Shown here piece after piece: positions 3,774 through 8,509 of a DNA stretch of 16,776 nt. The notes below the pieces were generated by a model. It was not told the DNA's origin, did no database searches, and saw only the letters and a list, made by a program, of their open reading frames with translations. The first letter of the stretch is position 1; every line of letters begins with the position of its first letter. The translations under genes and the position numbers were made by a program. Origin of the DNA: a virus. The stretch lies in the UHGV virus genome UHGV-1844214; one strand, 5' to 3'.

Positions 3774-4297
3774 GCCGCCCTCCTGACGCCCTGCCCGATC
3801 GCCATCAATGCCGCTTTGGATACGGTAGTAAACATCCGTCGAGGACTGATGAACGGTCGCCAAATCAGCAGCATGGAGCCTTTGCTGTTTCCCTTCTTCT
3901 CCAGCCCTGTCGATGGTTCGATAAAATTAATCCGTCCATCAGTGATAATACGAACTTCGTCAACACTCTCCAGAGCCTTGCTGAACCATCCGACAGACAT
4001 ATCCTCTGGCACAAGCATCACTACCGTCTGTCGTTGTTGTATGCACTGCTCAGCGGCTTTTTCCACCCACGGCCTGATATTGCTGTACGGTGGGTTATTC
4101 CAGATTGCACCGTGGCTTATCCACTCAGAATTTAGCGCGTCGTCGGCCTCAGTTAGCCAGTGAGCGCACAGAGCATTTTTGTCGCTCGCTGCCGAATCCA
4201 GCCAGAATCCAAACTCAATATCCAGTGCATCAAAAAGCCAAAGCGGCGTTTGCCAGCAGTCCTTGTCGTGTGCTGGCGTATTTGATTTGATAGTCAT
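3770..4297 (-). CDS. Phage Dam-like DNA N6-adenine methyltransferase (about 175 aa)
   Basis: Motif IV NPPY (..[15 protein letters not shown]..) plus upstream FGFWLD segment; sits where lambda has ninC/ninD. Start taken at ATG 4297 (ATGA overlap with the ninB stop, AAGGGAAGG upstream); an alternative ATG at 4324 lies inside ninB. Confidence 0.75.
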
Positions 4298-4740
4298 GCA
4301 GCCTTCCCTTTTCGTTGTGACCATTCATACTCTCGCCGGGAGTCATCACTCCACCGCACGTTGCGCTCTGAGCCGAACCAGAACATGATTTCGATAAGCT
4401 CAGTCATGCTGGCCTTTCGCATTTTGCTGGTACGCACTCCAAGCATAACAACGCCACCGTCGATACCAGGCGCACTTCGTTGCTCCAGTTTTTTGGTCTT
4501 AAGCCACAGAGCAGTGAACAGATCTTTCCAGTCCTCCGGCGCAAGTCTCTGTCCATGCCAAAGCACCTGACGCGAAACATCGTTCAGCATCGGCCACATA
4601 CGGTCATTCTGCGCTTTGCTCCGCTTGGGTTCTTTAATGTGGACTTCGTGAGGTGACTTGTCGTCGATGGGAAGTGAGAGTATTGCGTCTATGGCGTTGT
4701 TTCTGATTGCTTCGTTGCGAAGCATGTATATTTGCTTCAT
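4294..4740 (-). CDS. ninB: NinB-like protein (148 aa), divergent allele
   Basis: ORF-track protein shares the lambda NinB pattern (..DVSRQV.WHG..L..E.WK..FTA..K.......G..VV.G..TS.M.......L.E.....G.ER.V.WSD..R...EW...). Similar but not identical to lambda as recalled. Confidence 0.75.
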   Translation of the reverse strand: MKQIYMLRNEAIRNNAIDAILSLPIDDKSPHEVHIKEPKRSKAQNDRMWPMLNDVSRQVLWHGQRLAPEDWKDLFTALWLKTKKLEQRSAPGIDGGVVMLGVRTSKMRKASMTELIEIMFWFGSERNVRWSDDSRREYEWSQRKGKAA

Positions 4741-4762
4741 CGTTACCTCGACTTAATTCTGC

Positions 4763-5089
4763 TCATTGATACCCTCTCTCACTTAATCGCCTCCACGCTT
4801 CGTTAAACTCCTCTCTGGTTGCGCCGGATTTTCTTTCTTCAAACATCATGCATTCGCTGATGTCTCCCCATGACTTTGGTCGCTTTTCAGCGAACAGATC
4901 ATCCCATTCGAATACCCAGCGGCCTGATTTTCGGTAGTGGTAAATGGTCAGCCATGTTGTGCTGTTCGCTGGATACCCATAGAGAACTTCGACTTTTTGA
5001 TCACGGTCTTTATGCTTTTTCAGCAGGATAAAGCCAGCAACCAGTGAAGCTCCGGCAAGAATGATGATTGGAATTTGCCAGTCAGCCAC
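4763..5089 (-). CDS. Hypothetical membrane-anchored protein (108 aa, one N-terminal TM segment; GTG start)
   Basis: ORF track; hydrophobic N-terminus IPIIILAGASLVAGFILL then a charged soluble domain; GGAGGG 4 nt upstream of the GTG start. Occupies the lambda ren position. Confidence 0.5.
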   Translation of the reverse strand: MADWQIPIIILAGASLVAGFILLKKHKDRDQKVEVLYGYPANSTTWLTIYHYRKSGRWVFEWDDLFAEKRPKSWGDISECMMFEERKSGATREEFNEAWRRLSERGYQ

Positions 5090-5101
5090 ACTTCCCTCCG
5101 C

Positions 5102-5308
5102 TTAACTCACAAAACTCCACGCCATTTTTGCTACGACAACAGGCATAACACCGATAATCACCCACAGGAGAATGCTACCGAAAAGCACACCCACCATGTC
5201 TTTACCTTCGCCTACCAACCGGACAAAACTGCTGGCAACCACAATGAACGTCGCCACCATCCACATAGCACCGAGAATCCTCAATGCAGAGAAAATTAAC
5301 TCAACCAC
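5102..5308 (-). CDS. Hypothetical small membrane protein (68 aa, two predicted TM segments; GTG start)
   Basis: ORF track; two hydrophobic stretches (MWMVATFIVVASSFV and VLFGSILLWVIIGVMPVVV); GGAGAG 6 nt upstream of GTG; stop 12 nt before the next gene. Confidence 0.45.
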   Translation of the reverse strand: MVELIFSALRILGAMWMVATFIVVASSFVRLVGEGKDMVGVLFGSILLWVIIGVMPVVVAKMAWSFVS

Positions 5309-5322
5309 GATTTACTCTCCCC

Positions 5323-5355
5323 CAAATAAAAAGGCCTGCGATTACCAGCAGGCCT
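5323..5355 (-). terminator. Intrinsic terminator candidate downstream of the helicase gene (tR2-like position)
   Basis: Minus-strand RNA would form AGGCCTGC-(8-nt loop)-GCAGGCCT followed by TTTTATTT. Lambda has tR2 at the equivalent place between the replication genes and the nin region. Confidence 0.45.
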
Positions 5356-5383
5356 GCTATCAGCTCAGTGATGTAGATGGTCA

Positions 5384-6820
5384 TCAGAATCCTCCTTTCT
5401 TCTTGGACTGCGGTTCCTCGCGTTCACGGCGGCGCATTTCAGCAGACTGTTGGTCTGTGTCATAAATAGCGCCATTTGCCTGAATGCAATACACCGTGCC
5501 GGTATTGCCATGACGATTGAGACGAAGGATTAGTTCAGTTTCACCAGGTGGAACACTGTCATCAAAAGCGCCTTCACGATGGATCCCCACCCAATAATCG
5601 CAATCCTGTTCAATCTGCCCTGTATCTCGTGAGTCACTTGGTAATGGGCGTTTATTGGTTCGGCTTTCCAGTGCGCGGTTAAGCTGCGTCAGAAGCACAA
5701 CAACGCAATCAAGCTCTTTGGCAAGGTTCTTCAGTCCTTTGGTGATCATGCCGTAGGCAAGGTCGTTGCGATCGGCCTTCTCAGCGGTCATTAGTGTCAG
5801 GTAATCGACCAGAATCATGCCAACACATCCTTTTTCTCGCTTGATTCGACGGCTTTCGCTGACGATTTGAGCCAGAGATAATCCCGGCGTGTCGTCGATG
5901 TAAAGCAGGTCGATTTCACTCAAGCGATTGGCTGTTTCGATCGCCCTGTTGAAGTCACCATCGTAATCACCCTGATAGCCGTCATCAGCGTCATTTGTCG
6001 CCGGAAGGTAAAAAATATTCGGGTTAACACCTGACTTCTGTCCTACCAGTTTTTCCAGTATCTGGTCACCGGGCATTTCAAGGCTGAACATCAGAGCAGG
6101 CTTTTTCTCATGCACTGCGCAGTTGATTGCCATCTGGCTGTATAGTGTCGTTTTCCCCATCTTAGGGCGAGCGCCAATGACAAACAGAGAGCCTTTCACC
6201 AGACCTTTCGGTGACAGCATCCTGTCCAGCGATGGGATCCCTGTGCTCATTCCTCGCTGTTCGCCTGACGGGTCAAATCGCTTCTCAAGGTCGCTAACCC
6301 AGTCTTCCATGACCTCACCAAATGAGCGAAGGCCGCGACGCGATCCGGTTTTTGCATGGTCTGTCAGTTGCGTGAAAATCGCCTGAATAGCTTCGTACTT
6401 CTGCGTTGCAGTCATTCCGTTGCGGGAATAGAGCAATTCCGTCGCTTCAGTCATGCGGTTGATGGCGTAGCGTTCCATTGCGGTTTCACGAACCTGCATT
6501 GCATAGGCAACGATGTTTGCGGCGCTTGGCGTGTTCTTTGCGATCTCAGCGATATAAGCAAAACCGCCAACAGACGCCGTTAACGATTTACGCTCCAGTT
6601 CATCGAAAAGCGTCAGGCCATCTACTGGCTTTTGCTCCCGGTGCATTCTGGTTATTTCTTCGAAAAGGATTTTGTGTGGTCGGCTGTAAAATGAATCAGG
6701 CTTCAGCATCGCCAGAACTTTCTGGACGCGCTCACTGCTGTCATCATCCAGAAGCAATCCACCAATCACCGCCTGCTCTGCCTCGATGCTATGGGGCGGC
6801 GCATAAAAATTATCGGTCAT
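5384..6820 (-). CDS. Replicative DNA helicase, DnaB family (about 478 aa)
   Basis: Walker A GARPKMGKTT, DnaB-type N-terminal domain (HSIEAEQAVIGGLLLD), Walker B-like LILVDYL; replaces lambda P. Start taken at ATG 6820 (GAGGGTG upstream), overlapping the O-like stop by 11 nt; the ORF-track start at 6835 is a GTG. Confidence 0.85.
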   Translation of the reverse strand: MTDNFYAPPHSIEAEQAVIGGLLLDDDSSERVQKVLAMLKPDSFYSRPHKILFEEITRMHREQKPVDGLTLFDELERKSLTASVGGFAYIAEIAKNTPSAANIVAYAMQVRETAMERYAINRMTEATELLYSRNGMTATQKYEAIQAIFTQLTDHAKTGSRRGLRSFGEVMEDWVSDLEKRFDPSGEQRGMSTGIPSLDRMLSPKGLVKGSLFVIGARPKMGKTTLYSQMAINCAVHEKKPALMFSLEMPGDQILEKLVGQKSGVNPNIFYLPATNDADDGYQGDYDGDFNRAIETANRLSEIDLLYIDDTPGLSLAQIVSESRRIKREKGCVGMILVDYLTLMTAEKADRNDLAYGMITKGLKNLAKELDCVVVLLTQLNRALESRTNKRPLPSDSRDTGQIEQDCDYWVGIHREGAFDDSVPPGETELILRLNRHGNTGTVYCIQANGAIYDTDQQSAEMRRREREEPQSKKKGGF

Positions 6821-7709
6821 CGTGTTCACCCTCACGAACTTTCAGGTAGGTATTGTCGTTAAGCAGGAAATCAAATCCCTTTTTGTGCCAGACAGTTCCG
6901 CGTTGATGGTTTGGACGCTCTTCGAACATCCATCGGCAATTTTCGCCTACGTAGCTCAAATAATTTCTCCAGTCCTGCATCGTGAACCCATGCCCGTCAA
7001 GCTGGCGGGTTATCACTCCGGCTTTGCGCCAGAACGTTCGGATCTGGTTTTTACGCTTGTCATTCAGTGCGCGGATTCTTGGCGCTTCAGGAAGGATTTC
7101 GTGGTAAGCATCGACAACATCCTGACAGCTGACGGAAGGTTTTTTCTTGTCAGACTTTTTGTCTGCTGTGGCACTCTCTAATACGTCAGTATTAGAGATA
7201 ATATTATTATATTCTTTATCTGTGGTAATTTGCTGGTAATCTGCTGGTACAGCATTGCTTACAGGCATTGGTATTGCTGGCTTTGAGGTGGTAATTTGCT
7301 GGTAATCTGCTGGTACAAAATTTGACTGATAATCGTCATATTTCTCTACCGAGAAAACTGAGAATTTACCGTGTGAAACCCAGTCAATCATGCCGAGTTT
7401 TTTGAACTTTCTAAGCAGGTACTGAACGCGATCTGGTTTGAGTCCTGTTTCAAACGCCAGAGAGTTTCTACCGCCAAGTAGCTTCCCTCTGCCTACCAGA
7501 ATTTCTCCTGCGTCAGTCATTACATACTCAGGCGTATGCTTTGCTTTGAGGATTAAGTGAACCCACAGATGCGCAGCTTCTGCGTCCTTGTAAAACGGCA
7601 CATCCATAATTTTACGGTGCAGCAAGGCATACCCCTTACCGCTGCTTTGATGCGGTTGTTGTAGCCTTCTGGCCTCTCTGGCTTCGGCTAGATTAGATAT
7701 GTTACTCAT
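6810..7709 (-). CDS. Replication initiator, O-like (299 aa), with iterons inside the coding sequence
   Basis: Sits directly upstream of the helicase in the lambda O position; coding sequence contains direct repeats (peptide [10 protein letters not shown] encoded twice) and an adjacent AT-rich tract; conserved phage replisome-organiser-like C-terminus. Confidence 0.8.
7175..7317. repeat. Putative origin of replication: iteron array plus flanking AT-rich tract inside the O-like gene
   Basis: The 30-bp unit GTGGTAATTTGCTGGTAATCTGCTGGTACA occurs identically at 7222-7251 and 7288-7317, with degenerate TGCTGG copies between; each unit contains repeated TGCTGGTA sub-motifs. AT-rich stretch at 7175-7220. 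Confidence 0.6.
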
Positions 7710-7848
7710 GACCTTTCTCCTTCTGCATCAGCTTCACCTTTTCCAACTCAGCCCGGAATCGACCAGGCTGCTTGAAGCTGGACAGGAAGCGATCACGTAG
7801 TATGTGTTTGTGAATTTTGTCCTGGTAAGGACTGAGTTGTTTTGTCAT
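7702..7848 (-). CDS. Hypothetical small basic protein (48 aa), stop overlapping the O-like start
   Basis: Hand translation from ATG 7848 (AGGAG 5 nt upstream): [48 protein letters not shown]; stop TAA overlaps the O-like ATG (ATGAGTAA). Not in the ORF track (under 60 aa). Confidence 0.4.
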
Positions 7849-7859
7849 AATGACTCCTG

Positions 7860-7936
7860 TGGATTGATCCAGTAATGACCTCAGAACTCCATCTGGATTT
7901 GATCAGAACGCTCGGTTGCCGCCGGGCGTTTTTTAT
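7860..7936 (+). ncRNA. oop: oop antisense RNA (about 77 nt) overlapping the 3' end of cII
   Basis: Plus strand ...GATCCAGTAATGACCTCAGAACTCCATCTGGATTTGATCAGAACGCTCGGTTGCCGCCGGGCGTTTTTTATT matches lambda oop as recalled, including the terminator hairpin and U-tract; convergent with cII. Confidence 0.7.
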
Positions 7937-8174
7937 TGGTGAGAATCGAAGCAACTTGTCGTGCCAATCGAGCCATATCGTCGTCAACGACGCCCCATTC
8001 AAGAACAGCAAGCAGCATTGAGAACTTTGGAATCCAGTCCCTCTTCCACCTGCTGATCTGCGACTTATCAACTCCCACAGCTTCCGCTGTCTTCTCAGTT
8101 CCAAGCATTGCGATTTTGTTAAGCAACGCACTCTCGATTCGTAGAGCCTCGTTGCGTTTGTTTGCACGAACCAT
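7881..8174 (-). CDS. cII: Transcriptional activator CII (97 aa)
   Basis: Internal start [75 protein letters not shown]... is essentially lambda CII as recalled; start context AAGGAAATACTTACATATG matches lambda. Confidence 0.9.
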
Positions 8175-8208
8175 ATGTAAGTATTTCCTTAGATAACAAT
8201 TGATTGAA

Positions 8209-8230
8209 TGTATGCAAATAAATGCATACA
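8209..8230 (-). terminator. tR1-region palindrome between nutR and cII
   Basis: Perfect inverted repeat TGTATGCA-aataaa-TGCATACA, matching the lambda sequence recalled just upstream of cII (tR1 region, Rho-dependent in lambda). Confidence 0.45.
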
Positions 8231-8253
8231 CCATAGGTGTGGTTTAATTTGAT

Positions 8254-8286
8254 GCCCTTTTTCAGGGCTGGGATGTGTAAGAGCTG
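8254..8286 (-). promoter_or_regulatory. nutR (boxA-like plus boxB hairpin), N-utilisation site of the rightward operon
   Basis: Minus strand reads CTCTTACACATCCCAGCCCTGAAAAAGGGCATCAAATTAAACC; boxB GCCCTGAAAAAGGGC is identical to lambda nutR boxB as recalled; the boxA-like element reads AGCTCTTACA. Confidence 0.7.
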
Positions 8287-8293
8287 GAATGTC

Positions 8294-8509
8294 TTAAGCG
8301 GCTTTGTGTTCCGGCGGGAACACGTCATCAAGACTGACTTTTGCGCCTAACTTGTTTAGGCACTCAACAAGAGCACGGCATGTTTTAAGGTCTGGGAAGC
8401 GACGACCAGATTCCCAATGTCCGATAGCTCCCTGTGTGCATCCAACTGCCTTAGCAAGTGTTGTTTGAGAGATATTCAGTGACTCTCGATATTTTCGTAG
8501 GTTGCTCAT
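8294..8509 (-). CDS. cro: Cro-like repressor (71 aa, HTH), heteroimmune relative to lambda
   Basis: Internal start MSNLRKYRESLNISQTTLAKAVGCTQGAIGHWESGRRFPDLKTCRALVECLNKLG... with GGAGGG SD; HTH (ISQTTLAKAVGCTQGAIGHW) closely parallels the cI HTH; divergent from the adjacent cI across the operator region. The ORF-track start at 8680 is an upstream non-ATG extension. Confidence 0.75.
   Translation of the reverse strand: MSNLRKYRESLNISQTTLAKAVGCTQGAIGHWESGRRFPDLKTCRALVECLNKLGAKVSLDDVFPPEHKAA

Follow-up and report, generated by a model that had tools for sequence, protein, structure and literature searches.

Two questions are raised by the replication region of the virus genome UHGV-1844214: which genes stand in the place of lambda O and P, and why is a 48-codon open reading frame (ORF) kept directly in front of them with its stop codon on top of the initiator start? 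We analyzed region 5384-7860 of a 16,776-nt stretch of this genome (the window) by computational means; all cassette genes in it are on the minus strand. A first-pass annotation, made from the letters of the window alone, had described a replication module swap with an extra ORF coupled to O. Our answer is that 5384-7860 is the early-right replication region of a mosaic lambdoid phage or prophage carrying a replication cassette of the HK022/HK620 type, in itself an ordinary one, and that the 48-codon gene (orf48) belongs to the DUF2740 family. From sequence comparison, the identities of the module and of orf48 are near certain. Taken whole, the explanation given below (module, flanks, orf48 as a gene, and translational coupling through masking of the initiator start codon) is offered with moderate confidence. 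Already in the literature or in GenBank are the replacement of the module, the additional ORF, the hybrid promoter of oop (pO), the breakpoint with lambda and the iterons, and as a finding they are known and ordinary. New here are orf48 plus oop as a shared left flank, the exact cassette edges, purifying selection on orf48, the universal stop/start overlap, and a predicted helix between the initiator AUG and orf48. The residual interest lies in orf48 as the shared flank of interchangeable cassettes, in the role of DUF2740 and in the predicted masking of the initiator start.

In a megablast search, 5300-8300 matched 433 phage records. The best matches, at about 98% identity, were phiv205-1, mEp235, Stx2-converting phage 86 (Stx, Shiga toxin), HK022 and VT2-Sakai, in which the gene series is annotated as CII, hypothetical protein, O and a DnaB-like 'P'. 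HK022 is 97.7% identical to window 7942-5353 over 2590 nt and HK620 is 96.4% identical to window 7873-5101 over 2778 nt. Since every phage in the collection covers 52% or less of the 16.8-kb window, the UHGV-1844214 element is, by this measure of coverage, a new mosaic of known parts. The distal gene of the cassette (5384-6820, minus strand; the 'P' of HK022/HK620) encodes a 478-aa protein that scored 584.5 bits against NCBIfam TIGR03600 (phage_DnaB, phage replicative helicase; cut-off 498.65) over residues 11-446. Its N-terminal domain matched PF00772 (DnaB; 107.8 bits, residues 8-112) and its C-terminal RecA-like domain matched PF03796 (DnaB_C; 204.2 bits, residues 190-445). The Walker A motif GARPKMGKTT, already picked out in the first-pass annotation as the mark of a DnaB-type helicase, corresponds to residues 216-225 (window 6146-6175). 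By these profiles the protein is a member of the phage DnaB helicase family, and as such it would be a hexameric ATPase that unwinds DNA 5'-3'. The start was taken as the ATG at 6820, which matches the annotation in relatives (the mechanical ORF runs from a GTG at 6835), and it overlaps the initiator stop by 11 nt. The claim that lambda O and P have been replaced holds: in the Pfam, TIGR03600 and lambda alignment results, orf48, the initiator and the phage helicase stand for O-P-ren. Lambda P loads the host DnaB. A phage with its own helicase would, unlike one with lambda P, be spared from borrowing it, and the initiator C-terminal domain would bring the phage helicase to the origin, by analogy with P22 gp18/gp12 and lambda O/P.

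The initiator gene (6810-7709, minus strand; 299 aa; the 'O' of HK022/HK620 type) is preceded by the Shine-Dalgarno sequence AAGGAG at 7717-7722. The protein matched phrog_345 ('replication initiation O-like') with 295 bits, and its N-terminal part matched DnaD-like helicase loader PHROGs. No significant Pfam or NCBIfam match was obtained; the sole Pfam match, DUF7376 (19.5 bits), was below its gathering score. Pfam Phage_rep_O gave no match at E <= 0.01, and BLASTP against lambda O detected no similarity (E = 4.8). Against P22 gp18, only the C-terminal 144 residues matched (25% identity, E 1e-4). The N-terminal domain of the initiator had no match to gp18, of which the N-terminal domain is 43% identical to lambda O. 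Alignment of initiator residues 2-113 to residues 1-102 of the lambda O family by hhalign gave 54% probability and an E value of 1.3e-4 from just 5 and 6 sequences; the score is compatible with, but does not establish, a remote winged-helix relationship between these N-terminal domains. A PDB sequence search with the initiator profile returned no match. The initiator N-terminus is probably a winged-helix domain. The label 'O-like' given earlier therefore stands for the gene layout with its internal iterons and fails for the sequence: by the above searches, the initiator is O-like in layout only (an N-terminal domain, an origin-containing linker, and a C-terminal domain with weak similarity to that of P22 gp18), and it cannot be shown to belong to the lambda O family.

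The origin iterons are two 30-bp blocks of a direct repeat family inside the initiator gene (7222-7251 and 7288-7317, together 7222-7317), spaced 66 bp apart. Each block contains two 11-bp units, TACCAGCA(G/A)AT, plus TACCAC, so that there are four 11-bp units in total, and the blocks match to the base the rep_origin annotation of HK620 and the 'ori iteron 1/2' annotations of VT2-Sakai. The stretch after the iterons (7165-7221) is A+T-rich, with 25-33% GC in 60-nt windows and a 10-bp perfect palindrome (7175-7184 / 7189-7198). It is probably the origin unwinding region, a role suggested by analogy because lambda ori likewise has iterons and then an AT-rich region. Each iteron block encodes a copy of a 10-residue peptide, which is thus duplicated in the initiator. 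In homologous initiators (loci L092, L093, L094 and L096) both peptide copies change together (CPADVQPVS, VPTE[F/C]QQSA, NP[T/K]E[V/I]Q), which suggests that the iteron sequence and the binding specificity of the initiator may co-evolve. Extra iterons in the Stx phages, where the matches are about 266 bp longer, were ruled out; the additional DNA is a gene after the helicase (H0100).

The edges of the exchanged DNA were mapped by alignment. Lambda 38247-38693 aligns gap-free to window 8287-7841 with 97.8% identity. The homology ends at 7841, in the third codon of orf48, and both sequences read ...ACAGGAGTCATTATGACAAA before diverging. The lambda-like part spans all of oop, the pO -10 element, the Shine-Dalgarno sequence and the first 8 nt (ATGACAAA) of orf48; the breakpoint had been put at 7860-7875, which is 19-34 nt too far left. 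On the other side, lambda 40566-40636 (the end of ren and the tR2 terminator) aligns to window 5385-5315 with 95.8% identity, so that the right boundary is the helicase stop. The tR2 terminator itself is at 5325-5355 (minus strand), with a terminator-like site or hairpin at 5332-5355. Further comparisons were made with phages that carry other replication genes: P22, and loci from IMG/VR or Shimwellia that encode a primase-helicase. Homology to these at the nucleotide level breaks exactly at 7702, where the orf48 stop codon ends, and resumes exactly at 5384, the helicase stop. For P22 it is limited to 7702-7873 and 5315-5384, with none inside the cassette. Since homology breaks at 7702 and resumes at 5384, the exchangeable cassette proper is, by these alignments, 5385-7701, comprising the initiator and the helicase. 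In the same comparisons oop and orf48 are a conserved left flank common to three different initiator/helicase cassettes, and tR2 is the right flank. Lambdoid phages would exchange replication cassettes between these two conserved flanks, oop with the 147-bp orf48 on one side and tR2 on the other.

To the right of an identical orf48 protein, the replication genes vary. Among 80 IMG/VR loci sampled for this protein, 35 carry the HK022-type initiator and DnaB behind it and 44 carry an initiator with a lambda-O-like N-terminus, in most cases a 286-aa initiator followed by a primase-helicase of about 626 aa; the remaining locus is a degraded prophage. The classic gp18 and gp12 pairing was seen in P22 itself and in locus L090. 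No lambda-P-type or DnaC-type partner was found behind orf48 in the loci examined, a small census in which this may only reflect the shared junction. Locus L082, where orf48 is followed by tail genes, was considered as a different context and rejected, as it was judged to be a rearranged or degraded prophage. In the third cassette (L043, L089, L095 and about 40 other IMG/VR loci; roughly 4140-7000 of each locus), a gap of about 100 nt separates the 286-aa initiator from the 626-aa protein. The latter was taken for a primase-helicase on reading its sequence and not by a family search. An insertion sequence element interrupts the L078 copy, and the L040 copy is fused to 968 aa.

orf48 (7702-7848, minus strand) shows a match of 99.4 bits to Pfam PF10872 (DUF2740; gathering score 27) over 43 of the 43 profile positions. 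Its product is a basic protein of 48 aa and 5.8 kDa (pI 10.1). The Shine-Dalgarno sequence AGGAG (7854-7858) is 5 nt upstream of the ATG, and lambda uses the same Shine-Dalgarno sequence and ATG for O. The earlier description of a basic 48-aa ORF with a strong Shine-Dalgarno sequence and a stop overlapping the O start agrees with these data, and its absence from lambda is borne out both by our lambda comparison and by Hayes et al. (2012). The protein is 100% identical to HK022 gp53 ('Orf48'), HK620 hkaW and VT2-Sakai H0097, 85% identical to P22 orf48 and 58% identical to ORF62 of Erwinia phage Midgardsormr38. DUF2740 is thus carried by P22, by the Stx phage VT2-Sakai and by 441 of 5426 complete E. 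coli genomes (about 8%), in which PGAP names it 'DUF2740 family protein', and it has no assigned role. A word-seeded homologue search yielded 54 clusters, Enterobacterales wherever named except for one 386-bp 'Xanthomonas' contig. A DUF2740 profile search of 1.84 billion representative proteins gave 15 matches, with no distant relatives and no functional lead; nearly all were short ORFs or fragments of the same family, the exceptions being one call of a c1-orf48 fusion and two long proteins matched weakly in several stretches. As far as these searches reach, the DUF2740 family is narrow.

The reading frame of orf48 is intact in prophages of Escherichia, Salmonella, Citrobacter, Klebsiella, Enterobacter, Atlantibacter, Shimwellia, Erwinia and Biostraticola, and in these it is always directly upstream of an initiator and a helicase. 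The order DUF2740-initiator-helicase was also found in Pseudescherichia and 'Ca. Erwinia dacicola' (species-representative genomes and two look-ups). A cII-like gene precedes orf48 in all the added loci but the Biostraticola locus L096, which has a 249-aa ORF instead. Placement of orf48 directly before the initiator, with overlapping stop and start codons, is common to the window, P22, HK620, HK022, the Erwinia phage and 9 further prophage lineages, L096 among them. An alignment of 15 sequences has 12 invariant columns, including H13, K14, I16, R18, D19, R20, E34, K39, H47 and E48; a 14-sequence subset has 22 invariant residues. Pairwise dN/dS (the ratio of non-synonymous to synonymous substitution rates) is 0.21-0.35. 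The window and P22 copies differ at 8.5 of 29.5 synonymous and at 8.5 of 114.5 non-synonymous sites, and between the window and the Erwinia orf48 dS is 1.17 and dN is 0.32. Five nucleotide variants were found among the E. coli copies, all of them synonymous. Given this dN/dS range and the synonymous-only E. coli variants, the orf48 product, not merely the act of translation, is under purifying selection by codon comparison, and orf48 is, on the same reading, a real, translated small gene. Whether the peptide is conserved in related phages had been left as a possible weak point of the first-pass annotation; the Pfam match, the P22 and Erwinia phage homologues and the dN/dS values answer it in favor of conservation. 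An AlphaFold2 model from the 14-sequence alignment is a two-helix hairpin (helices 7-23 and 28-44; mean predicted local distance difference test score, pLDDT, 81; predicted template modeling score 0.38). A Foldseek search of the model against the PDB gave no match, a two-helix hairpin being uninformative. No functional study or phenotype for orf48, DUF2740 or hkaW was found in the literature searched.

Some database records of this family need a comment. PHROG 1913, which is the DUF2740/orf48 family, is labelled 'tail protein', and RefSeq NC_019708, NC_008464, NC_002371 and NC_070949 are among the records copying the label; on an early-region gene this is almost certainly a propagated misannotation. 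Entries P0059 (a 152-aa c1-orf48 chimera) and P0001, P0012 and P0055 (58-77 aa) extend or fuse orf48 to the c1/cII frame, and they probably arise from frameshifts or from upstream starts chosen by gene callers. In HK97 the same slot is occupied by an unrelated 53-aa basic ORF, gp53 (L102 1221-1382; HK97 29720-29881). It has the same Shine-Dalgarno sequence and ATGACAAA start and overlaps a gp18-type initiator by 14 nt, with a DnaB-type helicase next. A small overlapping ORF upstream of the initiator is a recurring design, even with a different peptide.

The last 8 nt of orf48 (ATGAGTAA, 7702-7709) overlap the start of the initiator gene: orf48 ends in ...GHE-stop (stop codon 7702-7704) and the initiator begins with MSN (start codon 7707-7709). 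A stop/start overlap is present in every homologue examined, 8 nt long in eleven lineages and 4 nt long (ATGA) in L097; in Pseudescherichia it reads ATGGATAA. The overlap is kept before three unrelated initiator types, and all the initiators start with MSN or MDN regardless of family. The idea that orf48 is coupled to O, raised in the first-pass annotation, gains plausibility from this conservation. We folded the window mRNA of 7660-7880 (minus strand) and obtained -64.8 kcal/mol, with z = -2.95 against dinucleotide shuffles. In the minimum free energy (MFE) folds, UACU-A-CGUGAUC (7802-7791, orf48 codons 16-20, encoding ILRDR) pairs with GGUCAUGAGUA (7713-7703), which contains the initiator AUG. 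The predicted 5' arm (7791-7802) and 3' arm (7703-7713) of this long-range helix are both on the minus-strand transcript, and the 3' arm also reaches into the orf48 stop codon.

As a control, orf48 codons 2-41 were recoded synonymously with the codon usage of the neighboring genes, with 150-200 recodings per sequence. In ten homologues the recodings lose 7-16 kcal/mol of stability relative to the native mRNA, and the fraction of them that folds at least as stably as the native sequence is 0-0.085. Of two sequences added later, L099 behaves alike (7 kcal/mol, fraction 0.047), and the native mRNA of L097 is indistinguishable from its recodings (-38.6 vs -35.9, fraction 0.30). In nine lineages, specific pairing of the initiator AUG with the I-[LI]-R-D-[RQ] codons has a probability of 0.64-1.00, compared with recoding means of 0.05-0.32; the fraction of recodings that reach the native AUG-ILRD pairing is 0-0.17. 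The codon for Arg18 is CGT in 9 of 9 lineages, while CGT makes up 22% of the Arg codons in neighboring genes. Two broader measures, pairing of the translation initiation region and pairing of the Shine-Dalgarno sequence, did not separate native from recoded mRNA in about half of the sequences; the separation is seen only in the specific AUG-to-ILRD pairing and in the total MFE.

From these folds, start-codon masking with translational coupling is predicted to be the most likely role of the arrangement, and we put it forward tentatively. In a long-range helix, orf48 codons 16-20 would sequester the initiator AUG. A ribosome translating orf48 would open this helix and terminate on top of the AUG, and initiator synthesis would in this way be tied to orf48 translation, whichever cassette follows. 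If true, this would explain why orf48 is kept as the common left flank of interchangeable cassettes, and how the amount of initiator is set in these phages, among them the Stx phages that have this cassette. Several observations weigh against it. RNAalifold on 10 homologues keeps the AUG-masking helix, but all its pairs are invariant and there is no covariation. Both arms are coding-constrained, one as the invariant ILRDR and the other as a dual-coding segment (GHE-stop and MSN). The lineages are related, so that the recoding tests are not independent, and several p-values are only 0.05-0.17. Pairing of the AUG in general is frequent in the recoded sequences too (0.5-0.98). The initiator has a good Shine-Dalgarno sequence of its own (AAGGAG, 7-nt spacing) and could initiate independently. 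As for the wider explanation, recruitment of the helicase by the initiator C-terminus is suggested by the 25%-identity gp18 match and by analogy. Finally, with orf48 conserved at the amino-acid level, a trans-acting function of the peptide itself is probable, and the coupling model leaves this unexplained; structure and profile searches on orf48 gave no functional lead in this direction.

The last point is the basis of the strongest alternative, that orf48 is mainly a trans-acting small protein, for example as an accessory to replication cassettes that encode a helicase or by inhibiting or modulating some host factor, and that the overlap is compact packing. It would account for purifying selection at the amino-acid level and for invariant residues (12 in the larger alignment, 22 in the smaller) spread over both helices of a confidently predicted model (pLDDT 81). 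Every context found encodes a phage helicase, of DnaB type or primase-helicase, and never lambda P, but this link may merely reflect the shared ATGAGTAA junction. The copies of orf48 in P22 and the window are 85% identical, next to initiators and helicases that are either unrelated or 31% identical. Set against this, the protein has no homology or structural match to a characterized protein, no phenotype has been reported in the literature searched, and a trans-acting role leaves the excess of native over recoded mRNA structure unexplained. As the main function of orf48 we regard it as possible but rather unlikely; it and the coupling model are not mutually exclusive. The coupling model may be extended, as a speculation that we also consider doubtful: orf48 could be a portable translational adaptor, a 147-bp unit that provides the pO -35 element, a ribosome entry site and AUG masking for any initiator recombined behind ATGAGTAA, so that origin firing would be gated in at least three unrelated cassettes. 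The peptide might in addition act on the cassettes that bring a helicase.

It is improbable that the ORF is incidental and that conservation of the 147 bp concerns DNA or RNA alone, with the segment serving as the pO -35 region and as a homologous 'linker' in the exchange of cassettes. The first 30 nt or so of orf48 do overlap the oop promoter, the segment is a discrete mosaic unit with sharp boundaries at both ends, and the unrelated 53-aa ORF of HK97 in the same slot indicates that the particular protein is dispensable for the design. But the frame stays intact down to 58-59% identity with synonymous changes exceeding non-synonymous ones three- to five-fold per site, the Shine-Dalgarno sequence is strong and is the one lambda uses for O, and both Pfam and PGAP recognize a family. 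Acquisition of the P22 gp18/gp12 module from a Salmonella phage, which would fit the shared gene order, the 85% identical orf48 and a helicase homologous to gp12, has a very slight chance of being right and is refuted at the sequence level by a helicase only 31% identical to gp12, an initiator similar to gp18 in its C-terminal part only (25%) and unrelated to its lambda-O-type N-terminus, and nucleotide homology to P22 confined to the two flanking segments. The earlier reading of a P22-type arrangement is thus right about the architecture and wrong about the module itself, which is that of HK022/HK620 (96-98% nucleotide identity), though in its way of working it resembles both. We return to masking of the initiator start with coupling to orf48 as the preferred role of the overlap.

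The 5' part of orf48 also carries a promoter element for oop. The oop antisense RNA is at 7859-7935 (plus strand), placed by homology to lambda 38675-38599, with a terminator hairpin at 7905-7932 and a T run behind it. For the termini of lambda oop, general background and Hayes et al. (2012) were used. The gene antisense to it is a lambda-type cII (7881-8174, minus strand; Pfam Phage_CII 161.7 bits), which lies within the 97.8% gap-free lambda match and overlaps oop at its 3' end. The 78-nt oop RNA folds at -26.3 kcal/mol (z = -3.1). An Rfam scan of the whole window found no family at gathering score; Rfam has no oop model. A simple sigma-70 consensus scan called no promoter in 5200-8400, and pO (7823-7851, plus strand) was therefore placed by homology and direct reading of the sequence. 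Its -10 element CATAAT (7846-7851) and the upstream TG (7843-7844) are on the lambda side; the -35 element TGGTAA (7823-7828) is on the non-lambda side, inside orf48. Since lambda homology reaches 7841, pO is, by this alignment, a hybrid promoter with only its -35 in non-lambda sequence, and not a promoter lying wholly on the non-lambda side as had been proposed. The P22 record annotates an oop promoter at the equivalent position, over the orf48 start. A 5-bp hairpin, GTCCT-GGTA-AGGAC (7819-7832, plus strand), lies over the pO -35 and corresponds to orf48 codons 6-10. It is in the MFE fold of 11 of 12 homologue mRNAs and is absent from the Biostraticola locus.

Two neighboring parts of the window are worth recording. 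The immunity region (8294-9280) is also mosaic. In the repressor gene, the C-terminal part (8870-9274) has 93.6% identity to lambda cI (37233-37637), and no match to lambda was obtained for its N-terminal helix-turn-helix part or for the cro-like gene (about 8294-8510, minus strand). Between tR2 and ninB (4294-4740), window 4763-5308 contains two non-lambda ORFs, one of 68 aa (5102-5308) that is very hydrophobic and one of 108 aa (4763-5089) with a hydrophobic N-terminal segment.

The closest known systems are HK022, HK620, mEp235 and VT2-Sakai, with the order cII - orf48/hkaW - O - P[DnaB-like] and 96-98% nucleotide identity over 7942-5353. They share with the window the same genes, overlaps, two 30-bp iteron blocks and tR2, and differ from it in their surroundings only: cII and oop are of lambda type here, the HK620 cII is P22-c1-like, and the genes past tR2 differ. 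P22 (orf48 - gene 18 - gene 12) has the same architecture: the ATGAGTAA overlap is there, the orf48 start is covered by the oop promoter, the initiator gene contains the origin, and the helicase is of the DnaB family. The HK022 record itself annotates 'similar to P22 gp18 / gp12'. P22 differs in the lambda-O-type N-terminus of gp18, which is unrelated to that of the window initiator, in the C-terminus (25% identity) and in the helicase (31%). Lambda O-P-ren occupies the same slot between oop and tR2, has the same ribosome-binding site and ATGACAAA start, and carries origin iterons and an AT-rich region in the linker of its initiator gene; unlike the window it is without orf48, its O is not detectably similar, it has P where the window has a phage helicase, and it has ren, which is absent from the window. 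The lack of orf48 in lambda and the orf48-18-12 arrangement have been described, together with a lambda cI857(18,12)P22 hybrid that diverges from lambda at base 38694 and has a hybrid pO (Hayes et al., 2012; PMC3349717). That hybrid has lambda cII, oop and pO -10 and a non-lambda pO -35 inside orf48, as in the window. It carries the P22 cassette, while the window carries that of HK022/HK620.

For the predicted coupling, the comparison is with overlapping, translationally coupled gene pairs that have a start codon masked by long-range mRNA pairing, such as the coat and replicase genes of MS2. The window shares with such pairs a stop/start overlap and a helix, here a predicted one, between the downstream AUG and codons about 90 nt upstream in the preceding ORF; it differs in that its downstream gene has a strong Shine-Dalgarno sequence of its own.

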